In this document: piece after piece, positions 1 to 45,405 of the stretch | Layout of the letters: each line of letters begins with the position of its first letter | Numbering within the stretch: position 1 is the stretch's first letter | The notes under the pieces: generated by a model | Databases searched by the model: none | Seen by the model: only the letters and a program-made list of their open reading frames with translations | What the model was told of the DNA's origin: nothing | Assembly (NCBI GenBank): GCA_018650645.1 | Contig: JABIFP010000027.1 | Span: 24,379-88,378, forward strand | Origin: Candidatus Magasanikiibacteriota bacterium | GTDB lineage: Bacteria > Patescibacteriota > Patescibacteriia > Magasanikbacterales > UBA922 | Direction of reading: 5' to 3' | Length of the DNA: 64,000 nucleotides | Translations under genes and position numbers: made by a program

Positions 1-243
1 TTAAAAGAAGAAATGGGTGTTATGCGTGAAAAATTGAAGAGTCTTGAGGCTACTATTAAAGATGGATTTTCAGGAGAATTTACACAGATGGATGATTTAA
101 AAATCGATGTAGCAAGTGACATGGAACTGCTTACGGACATTGCCATGACTCAGCTCATGAAGGGGCAAACGGTAGCAGTAACGGATGAATATGATAATGA
201 ATACGAGCCACTGTTTAAAGTGAATTTTAAGAAGGTGAAGTAG
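1..243 (+). CDS. hypothetical protein, C-terminal fragment (ORF open to window edge)
   Basis: Frame is open from position 1 with no stop before 243. AT-rich host-like composition. Followed by a hairpin plus T-run at about 313-336. Confidence 0.4.
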   Translation, partial: LKEEMGVMREKLKSLEATIKDGFSGEFTQMDDLKIDVASDMELLTDIAMTQLMKGQTVAVTDEYDNEYEPLFKVNFKKVK

Positions 244-500
244 AACTACTATGTCATCCTGAATAACCGCGAGCTTTGCTCGTGGCATTGAAGGATCTGA
301 CTGCGTATAAAGGCCGTGCATATGCGCGGTTTTTGTATTGACAAAATCGATTTAGTATGGTACAAGAGTGCTACACCAAGGCGGTGTAACAGTGATGCAT
401 AGCGGGCGCCATAGGTGGCGGACGTGAGCTCTACCGAGCGTACATGACTGACAATTCCTTGCTGGCCGAGACAAGCGGGGCAAGGTGAAAGGTGTGACGG

Positions 501-1364
501 ATGTCACCCGAAGAGAGTAAGAGGGAGCTCAGCCCAGGGGCTGCGTGGGTTGGATACTACCTGTATGATCGGGTTGGAAAGACCTTGGTCATCATCGCAG
601 CGGGCCTGGCGCTCCTTGTGGGTGCGTTCTGGTGCTTGCTGAAGGTGGCGACGCTCGCGGAAGACGCATGGCGGCCGATGGAGTGGCCGACTTTTCTGCA
701 GTTCATGCCGGACGTGCCGAATGGCGTTCCGGCACTCGCAGGTTTCAGCATGGTGATCATCATCATGCTTGTGACTATCATCGCGAAGCTGACTTGGGAC
801 ATTCCGGGTTACAGGCAGCAGATGCGCAGTAATCTGGTGCAGATCAGCATGCTCCGGGGTGAAAAGGGCGTGCTCAAGGAGAAGCTCAAGACTGCCTTTG
901 AGGGTTCCGTGCAGAAGACGCGCAAGCTCCGCGCAGGCGATGTCTCCGATGTCATCGGCACGTTCATGAACTTCATCGCCGACCAGGCGCTGCGGATCAA
1001 GGAGTGCCCGTCTGACGAACTGGATGCCCTGGCGAGGAGGATTCGCAAGGAGAACGCAGGGCTCCTGCATCATCTCTCGAACACGTACGGGAACATTCCC
1101 GCCTGTCGGAATTTCGAGGATTCGGAGAGGCAGCAGGCCCTGGAGAGGGCTGGGGCATACAGTCGCCACTGTACAGCCCACGAAATCAGTGAGCTGACCG
1201 CACTTGTCAATGACGGCATGCTGCGGTACTGGAAGGATGCTGCAGTGGAGGCCGGTCTCGATAAGCATCAGTTTGGTGGAGAGGAGATCTTCGGTAAGGA
1301 CTACACGGTCCCTCGCGCTCCCGCCAACTGGACCATGTTCACCGGGGGCTCCCTCATCACCTAG
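501..1364 (+). CDS. hypothetical membrane-anchored protein (two predicted TM helices, then a soluble domain), GC-rich foreign-looking gene
   Basis: 287-aa ORF. SD-like AAGGTG about 8 nt upstream. Hydrophobic stretches LVIIAAGLALLVGAFWCLL and FSMVIIIMLVTIIAKL. Strong rho-independent terminator at 1431-1458. GC content visibly higher than flanks. The antisense ORF 504..1268 is R/P/H-rich and judged spurious. Confidence 0.55.
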   Translation: MSPEESKRELSPGAAWVGYYLYDRVGKTLVIIAAGLALLVGAFWCLLKVATLAEDAWRPMEWPTFLQFMPDVPNGVPALAGFSMVIIIMLVTIIAKLTWDIPGYRQQMRSNLVQISMLRGEKGVLKEKLKTAFEGSVQKTRKLRAGDVSDVIGTFMNFIADQALRIKECPSDELDALARRIRKENAGLLHHLSNTYGNIPACRNFEDSERQQALERAGAYSRHCTAHEISELTALVNDGMLRYWKDAAVEAGLDKHQFGGEEIFGKDYTVPRAPANWTMFTGGSLIT

Positions 1365-1430
1365 CAGGAACTAGCACACCCTGCGCAATTCCCACCACGT
1401 GCTCAGCTCGCTTCACTGCGGGCTGCTCAA

Positions 1431-1458
1431 GCCGGGCTTCGTGCCCGGCACTTTTTTT
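1431..1458 (+). terminator. rho-independent terminator (GCCGGGC-TTCGT-GCCCGGC followed by T7)
   Basis: Perfect 7-bp GC stem followed by ACTTTTTTT. Confidence 0.7.
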
Positions 1459-1501
1459 ATATAAAACAAAAATCTCCTATTATGGAGATTTTTGCATATT
1501 G

Positions 1502-1574
1502 TGACCCGGGTGGGATTCGAACCCACGACCGTCGGCTTAAAAGGCCGCTGCTCTACCAACTGAGCTACCAGGTC
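1502..1574 (-). tRNA. tRNA-Lys (anticodon UUU), CCA not encoded
   Basis: Reverse complement gives GACCTGGTAGCTCAGTTGGTAGAGCAGCGGCCTTTTAAGCCG...GGTTCGAATCCCACCCGGGTCA. The 7-bp acceptor stem, D, anticodon and T arms all fold. Anticodon loop is CUUUUAA. Confidence 0.85.
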
Positions 1575-1704
1575 ATATCTACCGCAATATAGTACATCAC
1601 TATGTGGGGAATGTCAATATAATACAGGAAAATCTGTGCATATGCAATATCCATTGCAATCAGGCGCATGTTTGCTATACTTAGGTCATTAAATATACAT
1701 CCTT

Positions 1705-2280
1705 ATGATAGATCAACCATACATGCAAACGCTAAAAGCGCACTTGCATAGCTACGCAGAACTCAGACGAGAAGTGATCACTATTTCTGGCGCTGCATTG
1801 CATGTTGCAAAGCGTGCCATCTTTTCTATGCACCGGCTTGATATGAAGGAGGCAGAGAAGAAGATTGCTGAAGCAAAAGAGGGGTTGAAACGCGTACAAA
1901 AACTTGCAAAAAAACAGCCAAAGTTACTTGGTGAAGGGTCATATAAAGCTGCGCTTGAAGAATATGTAGAAGCAGTACTTTTTATGCGGTTTATGAAAAA
2001 GAAACCTATTGGCCCAATCAAAGGCATGCCAATTTCAGAAGAAATATATATTGCGGGGCTTGGTGATGTCCCAGGCGAGTTGTATAGATATGCGATTAGA
2101 TCAGCAACAGAAGGAAATGCAGATGAAGTAAAACGCGCGCATGAGCAGGGAAGTGCCATTATTGAATCGCTTATGGAATGTGATTTAACAAAGTATTTAC
2201 GTACCAAATTTGATCAAGCAAAGAGTGCATTGCAGAAGCTAGAAATTGTCATGTACGAATTGAAAATCAGAGAGAAATAA
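1705..2280 (+). CDS. translin-family-like alpha-helical protein (tentative)
   Basis: 191 aa. The C-terminal pattern E-x-Y-x-GL-x-D-x-x-GEL-x-R ... LRTKFDQAKSALQKLEIVMYELKIR parallels the translin signature EDYLSG...LRKRYDGLKYDVKKVEEVVYDLSIR. Confidence 0.5.
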   Translation: MIDQPYMQTLKAHLHSYAELRREVITISGAALHVAKRAIFSMHRLDMKEAEKKIAEAKEGLKRVQKLAKKQPKLLGEGSYKAALEEYVEAVLFMRFMKKKPIGPIKGMPISEEIYIAGLGDVPGELYRYAIRSATEGNADEVKRAHEQGSAIIESLMECDLTKYLRTKFDQAKSALQKLEIVMYELKIREK

Positions 2281-2329
2281 AAAAATGGCGGCCCCGAAGG
2301 ACCGCCTGGTCGGTGCCAGCACGTGTGTG

Positions 2330-2596
2330 CTAGCCAATCACGAACCCGCACACTCGTCGAGCGTGCATGACAGTTCCGCTGCCGTCGACGCGCAAATTGG
2401 CGTCGATGGCGTAGCTGACATCCCCTCGCACAGCGAGCAAGGCAAAGTGGCACTTAGGGCAATAGACCTGATCGCCGTGAAGACGGAGTCTAGTCAAACC
2501 CTCGGTTTTGCCTTTGCTTGCCAGCTTCTCTCGCGCTTGCTTCGCGAGATCAGCCAGAATGGTTGAACTGCCAGTTGTCGTTGCCTGAACGCCCAT
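2330..2596 (-). CDS. small hypothetical protein in GC-rich islet (contains a CPKC motif)
   Basis: 88-aa ORF with strong SD (GGAGGG 3-4 nt upstream of ATG). GC-rich. The alternative plus-strand ORF 2285..2566 has only a weak SD, so strand choice is uncertain. Confidence 0.3.
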   Translation of the reverse strand: MGVQATTTGSSTILADLAKQAREKLASKGKTEGLTRLRLHGDQVYCPKCHFALLAVRGDVSYAIDANLRVDGSGTVMHARRVCGFVIG

Positions 2597-2648
2597 TAAC
2601 CCTCCCTCTGGAAATTGAGCAGCCTGACTATATCACAATTATCTGAAT

Positions 2649-3995
2649 TTGTCCACTATGATCAAGACATTAGTCAAAAAAATACTCCCAAAGTCAGTCT
2701 GGAACCTTAGGCATCTATTTTATGCTGCATATGGTGCTTTTAAGTATAAGTTTCCGTCAAAAAAACTATTTATTATTGGTGTGACAGGAACAAGTGGAAA
2801 GAGTAGTACAATATACATTTTACATCAGCTCCTAGAAAATGCTGGTTTTACAGTTGGTTCACTCTCAACAATCGAGTTTCATATTGGGCAAGACGCAAAG
2901 CTCAACGATAAAAAGATGACCATGCTTGGCCGCACAGCAATACAGAGATATTTGCGCCGCATGGTAGACGAAGGAATAGATATAGCTATTGTAGAAACAA
3001 CCTCTGAGGGGCGCGTACAGCACAGACATCGCTTTATTGAGTATGATGTCATGATGCTCACAAATTTGTATCCGGAACATATTGAATCGCATGGAAGTTT
3101 TAAGGCATACAAACAAGCAAAGGTTGATATTTTTGATTACGCAGCTTCATTAAAAAGAAAAAATCGATCAGCACTTACTACACGTGTGCAAAAAGTACTA
3201 CAGTCGCCAAAAGTTCAAAAGCAAGCAATTATATGCAAAGACGTTGATCACCACGGTCCGTTTGCAAGCGATGCTTTTGACAGCGTGAAATATTTTGGGC
3301 ACAAGCCAAGTGAATTTCAATTTACAAAAGTAGGACAAAGTGCAGAAGGATTACACTTCTCTATTAATGATACAAAAGTGCAGGCACCATTATTTGCCGC
3401 ATACAATGCACACAACATTACCGCTGCGGTTGCTGCTGCGGCATCGCTTGGCTGCAGCGAGGAGTCATTAAAAGAAGCGCTTACTACATTGAAACCTATT
3501 CCAGGAAGAATAGAGTTTATAACTGCAGCTGAGCAGTACGGGTTTAAAGCAATTGTAGATTACGCATTTGAACCAGTTGCAATCGCGGCATTGTATGAAG
3601 TGGTAAGACTCCTAAAACCCAATAAGATTATTCATGTATTCGGTTCTACTGGTGGAGGAAGAGATGTAGCCAGAAGATTTTCTGTTGGTGAATTTGTTGG
3701 TCTTAACGCAGATTACTGTATTGTTACAGATGAAGACCCATATGATGATGATCCTATGGAAATTATGAACGATGTGGCAAAGGCGCTACGTGATGTAGGG
3801 AAGAAAGAAGGAGTAGATATGATTATTGAGCCAGATAGGTCAAGAGCTATTGCTCTAGCGGTAAAAAGGGCTGCCCCTGGCGATGTTGTGCTCGTCACAG
3901 GGAAAGGTTCTGAGCAGGCAATGTTCGTAAAGGGAGAGCTTCTCCCATGGGACGATAGAGTTGAGCTTCGAAAAGCACTCAGCAGCAAAGCGTAA
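2649..3995 (+). CDS. Mur ligase family protein (MurE/MurF-like UDP-N-acetylmuramoyl peptide ligase)
   Basis: P-loop GVTGTSGKSST, the central Mur ligase domain, and a C-terminal GDVVLVTGKGSE motif. Confidence 0.75.
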   Translation: MSTMIKTLVKKILPKSVWNLRHLFYAAYGAFKYKFPSKKLFIIGVTGTSGKSSTIYILHQLLENAGFTVGSLSTIEFHIGQDAKLNDKKMTMLGRTAIQRYLRRMVDEGIDIAIVETTSEGRVQHRHRFIEYDVMMLTNLYPEHIESHGSFKAYKQAKVDIFDYAASLKRKNRSALTTRVQKVLQSPKVQKQAIICKDVDHHGPFASDAFDSVKYFGHKPSEFQFTKVGQSAEGLHFSINDTKVQAPLFAAYNAHNITAAVAAAASLGCSEESLKEALTTLKPIPGRIEFITAAEQYGFKAIVDYAFEPVAIAALYEVVRLLKPNKIIHVFGSTGGGRDVARRFSVGEFVGLNADYCIVTDEDPYDDDPMEIMNDVAKALRDVGKKEGVDMIIEPDRSRAIALAVKRAAPGDVVLVTGKGSEQAMFVKGELLPWDDRVELRKALSSKA

Positions 3996-4037
3996 TCCAC
4001 CTTGATCTATAGAGATGCTGTGCTATACTAAGCGCAT

Positions 4038-7120: not shown

Positions 7121-7136
7121 TGGGGAAGAAATAGCC

Positions 7137-7165
7137 TTGACAGTGGACGACAATTATTATATACT
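7137..7165 (+). promoter_or_regulatory. sigma70-like promoter TTGACA-N17-TATACT upstream of tRNA-Gln
   Basis: TTGACA at 7137-7142, 17-nt spacer, TATACT at 7160-7165. Confidence 0.5.
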
Positions 7166-7213
7166 TTCGCACGCAGGTTGTTCTCAATCTGCGTGTTTCT
7201 TTCAAGTAAATAT

Positions 7214-7284
7214 TCGGAGATCGTCTAATGGTAGGACTCTAGGTTTTGATCCTAGCTATCGGGGTTCGAATCCCTGTCTCCGAG
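7214..7284 (+). tRNA. tRNA-Gln (anticodon UUG)
   Basis: TCGGAGATCGTCTAATGGTAGGACTCTAGGTTTTGATCCTAGCTATCGGGGTTCGAATCCCTGTCTCCGAG. The cloverleaf folds, with a U1-A72 acceptor pair and anticodon loop UUUUGAU. Confidence 0.8.
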
Positions 7285-7426
7285 CGAATAAAAAAGCTCT
7301 GCTTTTTTATTTGAGAGGTGCAGGAGATGAGAACCTTTAGGTTCGACCGCCTAGTGGAGCGAGTCAAGAGGGTAGTTCTATCCTTTTGTGAGCGAAGTGC
7401 CGGTGGAACGAGGGCGTAGCCCGAGT

Positions 7427-7443
7427 AATCCCTGTCTCCGAGC
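7427..7443 (+). repeat. exact 17-bp direct repeat of the tRNA-Gln 3' end (AATCCCTGTCTCCGAGC), first copy at 7269-7285
   Basis: Identical 17-mer found 158 bp downstream of the tRNA 3' end. A palindromic terminator-like AAAAAAGCTCTGCTTTTTT lies in between. Confidence 0.8.
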
Positions 7444-7510
7444 AAGCAGTATTGATGTGATAAGAATAATCACGTATACTACTGCCAGCGCATATGCGCA
7501 ACCATACCAT

Positions 7511-7931
7511 TCGACGGTAGCTCAGTGGTAGAGCAGTTGGCTGTATCCAACATGTAAGTCGAAGTGAAAACCGTCATGTTTCCACCTTCATCGGTGGGGC
7601 AGGGCAAGCTACGACTGCAAAAATGCAGCCCTCAACAGGAATGTTGAGGTGAATAACGAGGTGAACTGCTGGAAGCCCTCTATTGATGCAAATCAATCGG
7701 GTAATCAGCAGCCAAGCCCCACGCACTTTTTCTTTATTGATGTGTGGGGAAGGTTCAGAGACTATCCCTTGCGGGAGTACTCTCCACATTTGTGGAGGGG
7801 AAGCGCCTCGCACCCGGCCGTCCCTTTCCAAGAGAAGGGTTATGACGAGGGTGATGATATAGTCCACGCTTCAGTGAGAATTGAAGATTGCGTGTAACCA
7901 ATTGGTCGCGAGTTCGAATCTCGCCCGTCGA
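7511..7931 (+). tRNA. tRNA-Asn (anticodon GUU) interrupted by a group I intron in the anticodon loop (exons 7511-7544 and 7895-7931)
   Basis: Joined exons give TCGACGGTAGCTCAGTGGTAGAGCAGTTGGCTGT|TAACCAATTGGTCGCGAGTTCGAATCTCGCCCGTCGAG. This is nearly identical in D-arm and anticodon arm to bacterial tRNA-Asn (e.g. GGCTGTTAACC). The 7-bp acceptor stem is TCGACGG/CCGTCGA. Confidence 0.8.
7545..7894 (+). ncRNA. group I self-splicing intron (tRNA-Leu/IC3-like core) inserted between anticodon positions 35 and 36
   Basis: 5' exon ends in U and the intron ends in G. Conserved R element GGTTCAGAGACTA at 7752-7764 and S element GATATAGTCC at about 7855-7866. CTTGCGGGAG follows R, as in the Anabaena tRNA-Leu intron. 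An 8-bp P2-like hairpin CCTCAACA-GGAA-TGTTGAGG follows a candidate internal guide GCAGCC. Confidence 0.7.
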
Positions 7932-7933
7932 GC

Positions 7934-7970
7934 AAAAAAAACGAAGCCTAGGTTTGGCTTCGTTTTTTTG
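7934..7970 (+). terminator. rho-independent terminator after tRNA-Asn (AACGAAGCC-TAGGTTT-GGCTTCGTT followed by a T-run)
   Basis: Perfect 9-bp stem flanked by an A8 run and a T7 run. Confidence 0.75.
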
Positions 7971-8307
7971 TTTTATTTCAGCCAAAAGTGAGTGGTAATT
8001 ACAGCTTGTATATGATTGCATTTCCATCTATGTATGGTTTTTGTAGGTTTTTTTATGAAAAAAAACCTTACACGAACAGTGGATAACATGATTGACAGAA
8101 CTGCTTTTTTCTGATACATTAGGCCGTTAGTTTGTTTTTTATGTCGAGGATCCCCGCCTTCTTTTGGTTTATTTTAGCGTAAATAACCCGAAAGAAGGCT
8201 GTGAATTTCCTCCAGTCATTGCGGTGTCTGTTTGACAATGGCAGTAATATGCTCGACATGGGGTCGGGTGTAGAGCTGTTTGTCGGCAGATGCAAGGATG
8301 AGAGAAG

Positions 8308-8880
8308 ATGGACAAGCTAATCACGGCCAACCAGATCTTCGAGCTCCTCGGAGAGAACAAGCTCGGGCGCATTACCCGGGATCAACTGCAGGCGTTTTTG
8401 ATGTACCCTCTGGGCTGGAGGAACACCGGCGAGATCATCGAGTACGATCTCAAGCTCGGGCGCGATGCGATTAGTGCGCACGTGGCCGAAGGCAACTACG
8501 AGCACTTCGTCAGCCCTAACATCAGCACATTAGTCCACCACCTCGCCGGGCGGGGCTTTCGCACGGTGAGGTTCAAGCTTGTCCCGGGCAAGCTGTTCCA
8601 GAAACCTGAGCCGCACTTCCACTACTGCGAACGCGAGGACTTCCAGCTGTACTGCCAAGATCACCAACTCCGAGAGCCCAACGCGGCCGAGGCGACGCTG
8701 TACCCCGCCATGGACAGGCAGGTCGGGATCAAGAGCGGACCGCTGTACGCCTTCATCCACGAAGAGGATGCAATGTTCTCCGTGAGTTCTGAAGATGGCA
8801 AACGACAGCTCCTCTGGCAGAAAGCCAGCTGTACTCGTGGCTACTCTAGCGACCGGCTGTTCCTGGCCGTCTGCGTTTAG
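8308..8880 (+). CDS. hypothetical protein in GC-rich islet
   Basis: 190 aa. AGGA SD about 10 nt upstream. Balanced amino-acid composition. The antisense ORF 8530..9084 is R/G/P-rich and judged spurious. Downstream hairpin CCCCCGAC-GTA-GTCGGGGG at about 8936-8955. Confidence 0.5.
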   Translation: MDKLITANQIFELLGENKLGRITRDQLQAFLMYPLGWRNTGEIIEYDLKLGRDAISAHVAEGNYEHFVSPNISTLVHHLAGRGFRTVRFKLVPGKLFQKPEPHFHYCEREDFQLYCQDHQLREPNAAEATLYPAMDRQVGIKSGPLYAFIHEEDAMFSVSSEDGKRQLLWQKASCTRGYSSDRLFLAVCV

Positions 8881-9205
8881 TCGCTTGGGTCCTTGCGGAC
8901 TTTGCCCTCGGGCATTGGTTCCTTGGACACTTGGTTTCTTCCCCCGACGTAGTCGGGGGTCGACGCCGACCGGGCGACTACCTACACCCCGTGTGTGAAA
9001 GTTCGAAAGAACGAGTAACGCGCGGGTTTTTTCATATTCAAAAATTTTGTATAAAGAAAGAATTGTCGCTATCGCAAGCAGCATAATTTCTTTGTCACAT
9101 ATTGCAAAAAATAAAGCTACAATAAATTGCCAGGTTAATTTTCACTTTGCTACGTTAAGCAAAGAATCAAGGATTCTGTTTCGAACTACATCCAGCTGCC
9201 CGAGC

Positions 9206-9240: not shown

Positions 9241-9350
9241 TTACCTTCAATTGCTTCAACGTATTAAAGCGATATTTAGGTAGGGATCTTGCGATCCCTG
9301 ACCTCCTTTCGTCAGTTGTTGTTTGGTTCATTCAGCCAGCGGTGTTGCCG

Positions 9351-9872
9351 CTAGCCCATGCTGATGTGCATGACCAGCACCGACTCGACGTCGAAGCTGT
9401 GCGGGTGCACCAGGGGCAGGTCGGCGGCCAGGGCCGTCTTCATGATGCCGATCGCCGTGGGGATGTCCATGAGGGACTTGCCCACGATATCCACCATAGC
9501 GCTGAGCGTACCGCTGAAGCAGCAGGTGGTGAGCCCACGCTTGTCTTCGTCACGCCGGATCACGAGGCACTGGTCCTCGATCACGGCGGTGAAGCCCTGC
9601 ATGGTGCACGCACCCGGGTAGCTGCGGACGAGCTCCGCAATAGCGGCGGCGTCCTTCGGCAGGTCCTTGCCCACCTTCCGGAGGAAGGGGGCGCCGATCT
9701 CGATGATGTCGAGATCTCGGCTGTCGGCCAGGTGACCGACCTCGGCGTTCAGCATCTGGCGCGTGTAGATCAGCTGCGACTCGTAGTCGTCATGATCCGT
9801 GACGTTGCCCTGCTTGATGCCGAGAGCCTGGAGAAGCGGGTTGTTCCCGCTGGTGAAGGAAACTTCCTTCAT
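9351..9872 (-). CDS. hypothetical protein in GC-rich islet
   Basis: 173 aa with protein-like composition. The overlapping plus-strand ORF 9342..9935 is H/R/G/D-rich and judged spurious. The GC-rich block runs about 9285-9960. Confidence 0.5.
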   Translation of the reverse strand: MKEVSFTSGNNPLLQALGIKQGNVTDHDDYESQLIYTRQMLNAEVGHLADSRDLDIIEIGAPFLRKVGKDLPKDAAAIAELVRSYPGACTMQGFTAVIEDQCLVIRRDEDKRGLTTCCFSGTLSAMVDIVGKSLMDIPTAIGIMKTALAADLPLVHPHSFDVESVLVMHISMG

Positions 9873-10089
9873 GATGCATCCGTTTCTAGAAAACTGACTT
9901 CAGCTCGTTGCTGTCCCCAAGTCGTTCTCTTGTAGTGGTTGTGAGGGGAAGAAAAGCTTGTGATGACCTTTCTTCCTCCCAAAACAGATTGATATAGGAC
10001 TATAGACTATATTCACACTTTTGTCAATGATCGAGTAAAATTGTTATACACATAGGGCATTCACCAGAATTCCTCTATACTGCATATAT

Positions 10090-18093: not shown

Positions 18094-18159
18094 GGCTTTT
18101 TAGTGTTTTATACCTTTGGACATAGGGGCCCGTTAGCGCGGGAGAGAGGAAGCGGGGTT

Positions 18160-18297
18160 ATGCCTCGACCGAAGTGTTTCATTTGCAGCAAGAAGAGCGT
18201 CTCCCAAGCGGGACAGGCGTGCAGTGCATGCAAGAGGAAGGCGGAAGCGGAGACGCGTCAAGCTGACTCGGTCCGTCGCGGCAAGCGCCATCGATAG
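18160..18297 (+). CDS. small basic zinc-ribbon protein (CxxC...CxxC), GC-rich islet
   Basis: 45-aa MPRPKCFICSKK...CSACKRK... Strong SD GAGAGAGGAAG 8 nt upstream. Terminator hairpin at 18372-18400. The track ORF 18103..18297 contains this internal start. Confidence 0.4.
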   Translation: MPRPKCFICSKKSVSQAGQACSACKRKAEAETRQADSVRRGKRHR

Positions 18298-18371
18298 AGC
18301 ATAAGCGGCAAAGCACCATCGGTAGAGTATATTTCAACCTCAAGTCCTACAGGAGAAAGGAGGGCTATATA

Positions 18372-45000: not shown

Positions 45001-45029
45001 ATTATATAGAAATTCCCCATAAATGTCAA
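45001..45029 (-). promoter_or_regulatory. consensus sigma70 promoter (TTGACA-N17-TATAAT) for the rplJ-rplL operon
   Basis: Reverse complement of 45001-45029 reads TTGACATTTATGGGGAATTTCTATATAAT. A perfect 8-bp hairpin (45032-45050) lies immediately upstream. Confidence 0.6.
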
Positions 45030-45078
45030 GAGCCGGCCCTGGGGGCCGGCTGTGGTGAGCACATTGCTCTGGCGCTGC

Positions 45079-45297
45079 CTAGCAGCAGACTTTCAAAATC
45101 CGCACCTGAGGACTCGCGAGGTGCTCGTGGACTCCTCGAGTACCGCTGATCTGGACGCGTGTTCCCGTGGACAGGTCACAGGGCTTCTGCGTCACGACCC
45201 GCGCGTTGAAAACGAGGCCGCTCTCGGTGGGGCTCACAACCTGGACCTCCGCCCACTTCCCCTTCGAACCAACCACTTGTCCATTGTAAAAGCTCAT
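45079..45297 (-). CDS. small hypothetical protein in GC-rich islet
   Basis: 72 aa. G-rich SD (AGGGGGG) upstream. Preceded by its own consensus promoter (45321-45349). Followed by hairpin GCCGGCCC-TGG-GGGCCGGC. The plus-strand overlapping ORF is judged spurious. Confidence 0.35.
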   Translation of the reverse strand: MSFYNGQVVGSKGKWAEVQVVSPTESGLVFNARVVTQKPCDLSTGTRVQISGTRGVHEHLASPQVRILKVCC

Positions 45298-45320
45298 GAA
45301 TTTCCCCCCTAGTGATGTGA

Positions 45321-45349
45321 TCTGGGCGCATTATATAGATAATTGCACC
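45321..45349 (-). promoter_or_regulatory. consensus sigma70 promoter (TTGACA-N17-TATAAT), near-duplicate of the rplJ promoter
   Basis: Reverse complement reads TTGACATGAGGTGCAATTATCTATATAAT. About 22 of 29 positions match the 45001-45029 copy. Confidence 0.5.
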
Positions 45350-45376
45350 TCATGTCAACCCCTCTGGATAAATCTA

Positions 45377-45405
45377 TTGACAGCTTCACTAAACCTCTAT
45401 ATAAT
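45377..45405 (+). promoter_or_regulatory. consensus sigma70 promoter (TTGACA-N17-TATAAT) for tRNA-Glu
   Basis: TTGACAGCTTCACTAAACCTCTATATAAT, ending 9 nt before the tRNA start. Confidence 0.6.

Follow-up and report, generated by a model that had tools for sequence, protein, structure and literature searches.

A stretch of 64,000 nucleotides (nt) from Candidatus Magasanikiibacteriota bacterium (assembly GCA_018650645.1, contig JABIFP010000027.1, positions 24,379 to 88,378), hereafter the window, carries near its left end two short GC-rich segments that we term islet 1 and islet 2. Islet 1 holds a gene for a predicted membrane protein of 287 amino acids (aa) and ends close to a tRNA-Lys(UUU) gene, and islet 2 occupies most of the spacer between a native translin-family gene and a Mur ligase gene and would most simply encode a protein of 88 aa on the minus strand. 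Here, we report the composition, coding signatures and predicted expression signals of both islets, their absence from related genomes and the lack of homologues of their products, and we propose that they probably represent separate one-gene cassettes acquired from a GC-rich source.

Composition and gene content of the islets

The mean GC content of the whole window was 0.426 (150-nt windows, standard deviation 0.056). The islets were delimited by a log-odds maximal-segment analysis of GC content, in which both scored above all of 200 shuffled controls (top shuffle score 15.7), and sliding-window GC profiles agreed with the calls for both (Table 1). A preliminary description of the locus had placed abrupt compositional jumps at about 340, at about 1460 and at 2281–2600; these were borne out, with boundaries that were off by about 60 nt at the left of islet 1 and by about 10 nt elsewhere. 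The right edge of islet 1 was particularly sharp, with GC content falling from 0.70 to 0.20 between adjacent 50-nt bins at 1450. With a GC content of 0.597 compared with 0.42 for the host, both islets show the atypical base composition that is one of the marks by which genomic islands are recognised.

The core of islet 1 spans the 5′ untranslated region, the open reading frame (ORF) and the terminator hairpin of the 287-aa gene, which is annotated by NCBI as a 259-aa version with a TTG start at 585. The GC content at the first, second and third codon positions (GC1, GC2 and GC3) was 0.587, 0.427 and 0.753, respectively, compared with 0.53, 0.33–0.38 and 0.32–0.35 in host genes. A leave-one-out codon model trained on the other GC-rich cassette ORFs gave +0.23 for the sense frame and −0.10 for the in-register antisense frame. 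By the GC periodicity and by this model, the ORF is a genuine coding sequence, and it stems from a GC-rich codon regime. Codon usage was atypical as well, the relative synonymous codon usage of the 287-aa ORF being anticorrelated with that of host genes (r = −0.47).

The Shine-Dalgarno (SD) sequence and the GC-stem terminator that had been ascribed to this gene were both confirmed, and the distance from its stop codon to the 3′ end of tRNA-Lys, previously put at about 140 bp, was measured as 137 nt. The terminator stem has 7 bp, all of them GC, and is capped by a UUCG-type loop; a T-run comes after it. Upstream, a promoter-like site with a perfect −35 element and a TG-extended −10 element with a weak hexamer was read by eye; the consensus scan passed it over, the last T of the −10 hexamer being absent. 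This site sits outside the GC-rich core, in DNA with a GC content of 0.44 as compared with 0.60 from position 402 on. The leader (365–505) folded no better than shuffled sequences (z = 0.32). In a search of Rfam 15 at E up to 1, islet 1 gave matches to anti-hemB (27.9 bits) and SorX (24.4 bits) that were below the respective thresholds of 49.5 and 46.6 bits and rest mostly on the terminator hairpin and the stem-loops upstream of it.

Hydropathy of the 287-aa product revealed two hydrophobic segments, at residues ~24–54 and ~72–103, which fit the two transmembrane helices proposed earlier. They are followed by a C-terminal part of ~185 aa that is positively charged and predicted to be all-helical. 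By the positive-inside rule both termini and this helical part would lie in the cytoplasm. AlphaFold2 models made without an alignment were of low confidence for both islet products (mean predicted local distance difference test scores of 46.7 for the 287-aa and 45.8 for the 88-aa protein), with helices seen in the 287-aa model.

Islet 2 is most simply read as a minus-strand unit encoding the 88-aa protein, a reading that is favoured because of its promoter, SD and terminator signals, even though the coding strand is not settled. The predicted promoter is placed in AT-rich sequence 3 nt away from the ATG of the Mur ligase gene (2658), and the U-tract of the terminator extends into the stop codon of the translin gene. 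A three-base periodicity was present in the islet, with GC2 being the lowest at 0.48 compared with 0.61–0.66 at the other positions. The putative 88-aa product begins with a helix and is rich in beta structure in its C-terminal part, where a CPKC...H...C pattern may form a zinc knuckle. On the plus strand the islet contains an alternative ORF of 93 aa, which is the gene called by the Joint Genome Institute (JGI) and ENA on long contigs. No Rfam 15 family matched islet 2 even at E = 1, the tRNA alone being above threshold in the scanned region.

Table 1. Coordinates of the islets, of their signals and neighbours, and of further GC-rich segments (window positions unless a relative is named).
Feature	Position	Strand	Remarks
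Islet 1, GC-rich core	402-1449	none	1048 nt; GC 0.597; segment score 74.2
Promoter-like site, islet 1	340-368	+	TTGACA, 17 nt, TG-n-TACAAG; read by eye
SD-like AAAGGTG	488-494	+	6 nt before the 287-aa ATG
287-aa ORF	501-1364	+	ORF list; GC periodicity; codon model
Intrinsic terminator, islet 1 gene	1431-1458	+	GCCGGGCTTCGTGCCCGGC plus T-run
Predicted terminator hairpin of tRNA-Lys, AT-rich, host-style	1466-1495	-	12 pairs (4 GC), then T-run
tRNA-Lys(UUU), intact	1501-1574	-	promoter TTGACA-17-TACTAT at 1617-1589
Translin-family gene, native	1705-2280	+	GC 0.41; Pfam PF01997, E = 1.1e-18; separates the islets
Islet 2, GC-rich core	2287-2611	none	325 nt; GC 0.597; segment score 22.9
Predicted promoter, islet 2 minus-strand unit	2655-2627	-	TGGACA-17-TATAGT with upstream TG; 10/12 consensus matches
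SD GGGAGGG	2606-2600	-	3 nt before the 88-aa ATG (2596)
88-aa ORF	2596-2330	-	favoured reading; longest minus-strand ORF of islet 2
Predicted terminator, islet 2 minus-strand unit	hairpin 2306-2287, U-tract to 2278	-	GGCGGTCC-TTCG-GGGCCGCC then ATTTTTTTAT
Alternative 93-aa ORF	2285-2566	+	starts 5 nt past the translin stop; without SD
GC-rich cassette	8251-9050	+	190-aa ORF 8308-8880; GC3 0.79; promoter 8092-8120
GC-rich cassette	9259-9949	-	173-aa ORF 9872-9351; GC3 0.90; promoter 10027-9999
GC-rich segment (0.62)	18125-18322	+	45-aa ORF, ATG 18160; basic, CxxC...CxxC; directly after the dnaE stop
GC-rich mini-cassette	45032-45320	-	72-aa ORF 45297-45079; between L10 leader and tRNA-Glu
Zinc-ribbon gene of relatives	L004 4893-5207; L024 8129-8494; L005 6814-7404	-	104, 121 and 196 aa, respectively

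Distribution among relatives and in public databases

The locus was compared with those of seven relatives (L004, L005, L020, L021, L022, L023 and L024), whose translin proteins are at most 62% identical to that of the window. Both islets were absent from all seven, and a homologue of the 287-aa protein was found in none of them. The comparison that had been called for thus supports an acquisition as far as absence is concerned, with relatives that are distant and do not include a true empty-site allele. Pattern scans of metagenome contigs for the empty site gave no hit, and the 28-nt translin 3′ end used as a control, although present in JGI contigs, was likewise missing, so that the collection evidently does not contain these samples. 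The translin homologues numbered 671, mostly from Magasanikbacteria, the nearest being 62% identical.

The spacer between the translin and Mur ligase genes measures 377 bp in the window, 325 of which are GC-rich. In five of the seven relatives the corresponding gap was 6 (L004), 27 (L020), 40 (L005), 52 (L024) or 137 bp (L022). The remaining two hold unrelated ORFs of native composition, namely one for a 107-aa protein resembling EF-Tu domain 2 in L021 (1132–1455) and a 176-aa ORF in L023 (3333–3863). Islet 2 is therefore an insertion into an ancestrally tight, evolutionarily variable junction, which is a recurrent slot for small lineage-specific genes. The two islets had been described as a single pattern flanking tRNA-Lys, a view that does not hold: with islet 2 located beyond the native translin gene and inside the ancestrally tight translin–Mur ligase junction, they are to be regarded as separate insertions.

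The tRNA-Lys(UUU) gene was found upstream of an ATPase–translin cluster, on either strand, in L005, L020, L022 and L024 and is therefore ancestral to the neighbourhood. The gene order in relatives is large membrane protein, tRNA-Lys, P-type ATPase and translin, without a homologue of the 287-aa gene, and L020 harbours a homologue of the large membrane protein upstream in the window (35% identity, E = 2e-24). A P-type cation ATPase of ~890 aa is located directly upstream of translin in L005, L020, L022, L023 and L024, with no tRNA shown on the L023 contig. Judging from this order, the ATPase has apparently been lost from between tRNA-Lys and translin (1575–1704) in the lineage of the window.

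The products of the islets have no recognisable relatives. Word-indexed HMMER searches of 5.8 billion clusters with the 287-aa and 88-aa products returned only the proteins themselves or identical copies, the sole database match of the 287-aa ORF being a hypothetical protein from a metagenome-assembled genome of 'Candidatus Magasanikbacteria bacterium'. An exhaustive phmmer search of 1.84 billion representatives with the 287-aa protein yielded no true homologue, only two weak multi-stretch matches to the transmembrane region. No match for the islet ORFs was found in Pfam, NCBIfam or PHROGs, none below E = 0.1 in sequence searches of the PDB, and no relatives in phage and plasmid genomes (tblastn and blastn) or IMG/VR. 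PADLOC at E up to 0.1 detected nothing among six proteins (five ORFs of GC-rich cassettes and the native 146-aa upstream gene). The family, PDB, phage and plasmid searches all being empty, the initial impression of a product without recognisable function stands.

The islets are authentic sequence. Exact-sequence lookup of the 88-aa, translin and 287-aa proteins in public assemblies retrieved 10 full-length and 7 partial loci (JGI, ENA and Logan assemblies) that were 100% identical to positions 1–4000 of the window, and more than 20 independent assemblies were identical across all four islet junctions. The identical loci originate from five JGI samples, from MEGAHIT and SPAdes assemblies at ENA and from Logan, one contig being 206 kb long. 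The population is remarkably clonal, with zero nucleotide differences over 4 kb between the window and loci L001–L003 and L006–L019. All assemblies being identical over these 4 kb, there is no polymorphism on which a dN/dS test for selection could be based.

Origin of the islets and competing explanations

We consider the two islets to be separate cassettes of one gene each, specific to this lineage and derived from foreign, GC-rich DNA, that reside in intergenic spacers of a Magasanikbacteria chromosome, and would give this reading a probability of about 60%. Lineage-specific acquisition is preferred because of the atypical composition, the islets' own expression signals, the lack of a nearby integrase and the absence from all relatives. 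Within each GC-rich core, an ORF would be preceded by its ribosome-binding site and followed by a short GC hairpin terminator with a UUCG-type loop, and the AT-rich DNA immediately bordering the core would supply a sigma-70-type promoter. The promoter and terminator of each unit are predicted signals, recognised as consensus matches (by scanning in islet 2, by eye for the islet 1 promoter), and the short GC hairpins are unlike the long AT-rich hairpins of the host. Having its own promoter, ribosome-binding site, ORF and terminator, each cassette may form an autonomous transcription unit similar to a phage 'moron'. Islet 1 would then provide a membrane-anchored protein with a helical hairpin and a helical domain of ~185 aa facing the cytoplasm, for which an accessory envelope or defence-type role can be guessed at, and islet 2 would provide, from the minus strand, the small 88-aa protein with its possible zinc knuckle. 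As to the route of entry, our best guess is illegitimate or microhomology-mediated insertion of taken-up or phage-delivered DNA at tolerated sites; we do not think that integrase-mediated recombination at a tRNA was involved. Horizontal gene transfer and genomic islands are reported to be common in Patescibacteria, with competence, phage or conjugation as proposed routes of acquisition (PMC12455944).

Several known systems offer themselves for comparison. The morons of lambdoid phages are single genes of atypical composition that are transcribed autonomously, each from its own promoter to its own terminator. Like them, each islet consists of one ORF with its own predicted promoter and intrinsic terminator, is unlike its neighbours in composition and lies between contiguous genes, and moron products are likewise often small or membrane proteins of unknown function. 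In contrast to morons, the neighbours of the islets are translin, Mur ligase, tRNA-Lys and a conserved membrane protein instead of prophage genes, and the promoters are situated in host-like AT-rich DNA outside the GC-rich core; searches gave no PHROG match and no phage or IMG/VR relatives, and no phage genes were found near the islets. With tRNA-associated islands the islets share the atypical composition, the position of islet 1 on the 3′ side of a tRNA and an accessory cargo of unknown function. They differ from such islands in lacking an integrase and a tRNA 3′ duplication, in the host-type terminator that intervenes and in their size (~1 kb and 0.3 kb as opposed to several kb), and islet 2 is not adjacent to a tRNA. 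The islands documented in Patescibacteria (PMC12455944) are similarly compositionally distinct, lineage-specific DNA in a genome of the Candidate Phyla Radiation (CPR). They were obtained by IslandViewer-type predictions and mostly have annotated functions (PMC12455944), whereas the units described here are single ORFans of sub-kilobase to 1-kb size without homologues, which such tools probably miss. The islet genes also resemble bacterial ORFans of probable phage origin in being short, without homologues, off the host in composition and placed in intergenic slots, but they are much GC-richer than the host, whereas classical ORFans are usually AT-richer.

A number of observations weigh against the acquired-cassette reading or parts of it. 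Composition is what points to a foreign origin, no donor or homologue having been found, and the expression of the cassettes is a prediction from sequence signals. Since translin identity to the nearest relative is no higher than 62%, there is no constraint on when the gain took place, and loss in the other lineages is formally possible. In three different species, L004, L005 and L024, a small zinc-ribbon gene located just downstream of tRNA-Thr(CGU) is homologous, syntenic and GC-enriched (0.61, 0.52 and 0.50, respectively, compared with backgrounds of 0.39–0.44); GC-rich small genes can thus be long-term residents of the clade, and cassettes of this kind can persist through speciation. The clustering of GC-rich segments near tRNA genes, described below, is not predicted by the one-gene-cassette explanation itself. 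For islet 2, the codon model did not separate the 88-aa from the 93-aa ORF (0.015 versus 0.021), nor did GC3, and the RNA folded better than its shuffles, with a minimum free energy of −142 kcal/mol compared with a mean of −125.6 kcal/mol (z = −3.38).

Insertion at the tRNA is the explanation that has to be weighed first. Islet 1 could be an eroded integrase-mediated island or prophage at the 3′ end of tRNA-Lys, whose integrase and distal attachment site have since been deleted; we regard this as unlikely, although tRNA targeting is still live for islet 1 because of a repeat at another tRNA and the clustering of segments near tRNAs, also under a fairer null. The GC-rich DNA of islet 1 begins only 52 nt from the 3′ end of tRNA-Lys, and the AT-rich, host-type terminator hairpin at 1466–1495, which may be native or may have arrived with an element, stands between the two. 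The last 16–21 nt of tRNA-Lys occur once in the 64-kb window, even with up to three mismatches allowed, and a repeat search found no direct repeats flanking islet 1. As already stated in the preliminary description, integrases are lacking: no integrase or recombinase Pfam family was matched by any gene called between −9.5 and +11 kb. Classical integration at the 3′ end of tRNA-Lys is therefore not supported by these sequences, and of the cassette acquired at a tRNA 3′ end that had been suggested, the acquisition is upheld by composition and absence in relatives while the tRNA integration is not, neither repeat nor integrase being present.

What keeps tRNA targeting under consideration lies elsewhere in the genome. 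The last 17 nt of tRNA-Gln(UUG) (7214–7285), AATCCCTGTCTCCGAGC (7269–7285), are repeated exactly at 7427–7443, 158 nt downstream, and the repeats bracket ~140 nt of GC-richer filler, an arrangement resembling attL and attR sites left behind by a tRNA-targeted element that has decayed or been excised. Four of the five GC-rich segments in the window are located within 750 nt of a tRNA gene (P = 1.5e-4 under naive placement), and relatives also carry GC-rich segments beside tRNA-Thr. This test ignores that only intergenic sites were available, of which a compact genome has few, tRNA flanks included; under a null limited to intergenic slots P is estimated at roughly 0.01, and the tRNA proximity of GC-rich cassettes in this genome still looks non-random. 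Islet 2 and a GC-rich islet of L020 described below, however, occupy junctions without a tRNA.

Two further candidates were tried and rejected. An inverted repeat (317–334 and 1629–1646) around islet 1 and tRNA-Lys matches at 15 of 18 positions; as 35 comparable pairs occur in 10.5 kb, it was put down to chance. An integron-cassette reading was discarded on layout alone, given the lack of an array and of an integron integrase and the separate promoter of each unit; no attC search was made.

For islet 2 a different possibility is a structured, GC-rich non-coding RNA of ~330 nt on the minus strand, running from the promoter at 2655–2627 to the terminator at 2306–2287. The segment is indeed bracketed by these signals, none of 100 shuffles reached its minimum free energy, and structured RNAs in AT-rich genomes are typically GC-rich; the codon model fails to pick a coding strand, and the chance of a stop-free run of ~90 codons at 58% GC is estimated at ~4% per frame. 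We nevertheless deem it distinctly unlikely, as the strong SD directly precedes the ATG of the longest minus-strand ORF, the three-base periodicity is that of codons with a low GC2, and Rfam was empty at the most lenient cutoff; with no homologous sequences at hand, support from covariation is not possible.

A third alternative holds that the islets are old resident genes that have retained or maintained a high GC content and appear as orphans only through poor sampling of the lineage. The zinc-ribbon gene of the relatives gives a precedent, every cassette uses near-consensus promoters of host type, the islets are fixed in a clonal population, and the nearest sampled relative is as distant as 62% in translin. 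A GC3 of 0.75–0.90, however, would be hard to maintain in a genome with a GC3 of ~0.33 without recent arrival, the terminators are not of the host's style, the islets are missing from seven of seven relatives, five of which have tight ancestral junctions, and not even a remote homologue was seen among the 1.84 billion representatives, all of which makes long-term residence improbable. Finally, the source genome being metagenome-assembled, the islets might be chimeric joins with reads from a GC-rich organism, an assembly or binning artefact that is refuted by both junctions of each islet being the same across differing pipelines and samples, every overlapping locus being 100% identical over all of them.

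Further GC-rich cassettes and neighbouring features

At least six GC-rich one-gene cassettes, islets 1 and 2 included, are present in the window, mostly near tRNA genes (Table 1). Near-consensus or perfect sigma-70 promoters were detected by the scanner in the AT-rich borders of those at 8251–9050, 9259–9949 and 45032–45320; for the segment at 18125–18322 a promoter-like TTGACA overlapping the end of dnaE was read by eye only. The codon usage of the 287-, 190- and 173-aa ORFs is mutually correlated (r = 0.64–0.80) and anticorrelated with that of host genes. All-against-all BLASTP of the cassette proteins revealed no mutual similarity, family searches with the four further cassettes were empty, and the 190- and 173-aa ORFs gave no phage or plasmid match either. 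Around the third of these cassettes, at 45001–45405, three perfect 12/12 sigma-70 promoters, one each for the cassette, the L10 operon and tRNA-Glu, are found within ~400 bp, and the two on the minus strand have extra bases around the hexamers in common.

Among the relatives, L020, which is a different Magasanikbacteria species, carries an islet with a GC content of 0.6–0.7 at 7125–8150, between the Mur ligase and DivIC genes, with a 234-aa minus-strand ORF (GC3 0.89) for which Pfam and plasmid searches were empty. The zinc-ribbon proteins of L004 and L024 are 44% identical (E = 1e-24), and the promoter and SD region is conserved between both. Between PpiC and FtsE, the window lacks the entire block that the zinc-ribbon gene forms with tRNA-Thr and a 139/149-aa gene. 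The 88-aa protein was considered as a member of this zinc-ribbon family and rejected: a hidden Markov model of the three sequences gave 5.1 bits (E = 0.88, rank 2 of 702 window ORFs), and in BLASTP the overlap was limited to a 14-residue CPxC stretch.

A speculative idea, to which we attach little weight, is that GC-rich mini-cassettes of one gene each and without an integrase form a class of their own in Magasanikbacteria, their DNA having been captured from a GC-rich partner or from viruses of that partner. Such units would insert time and again beside tRNA genes and in other intergenic spacers, under strong host-type promoters, their DNA entering, for example, through the DNA-uptake machinery of an epibiont. 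Were this so, their composition and sequences would record which organism an uncultured CPR cell lives on.

The more general reading as acquired cassettes has consequences of its own. If it is correct, several tiny foreign genes without relatives among ~15 billion proteins are tolerated, and probably also expressed, in a CPR genome streamlined to ~1 Mb, and island predictors tuned to multi-kilobase regions miss such acquisitions. Other Patescibacteria can be searched simply for the same layout, in which a consensus promoter in AT-rich DNA precedes a GC-rich ORF that ends in a GC-hairpin terminator, frequently with a tRNA gene close by; donors, if ever identified, could point to the hosts of uncultured epibionts. 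Horizontal transfer and islands are already documented in this group (PMC12455944); what adds a modest point of interest is that tiny GC-rich orphan cassettes equipped with promoters recur in this clade. The locus itself would amount to two orphan genes that are neither a mobile element nor a tRNA-integrated island, and its practical message is modest.

A further tRNA gene in the window, at 7511–7935, is split in its anticodon loop by a group I intron (~7545–7894). The intron was matched by Rfam RF00028 at 7609–7886 with 83.7 bits, and its host tRNA was missed by ARAGORN on the genomic sequence. Splicing in silico yields either tRNA-Asn(GUU), with the junction at 7544|7895, or tRNA-Thr(UGU), with the junction at 7542|7893.

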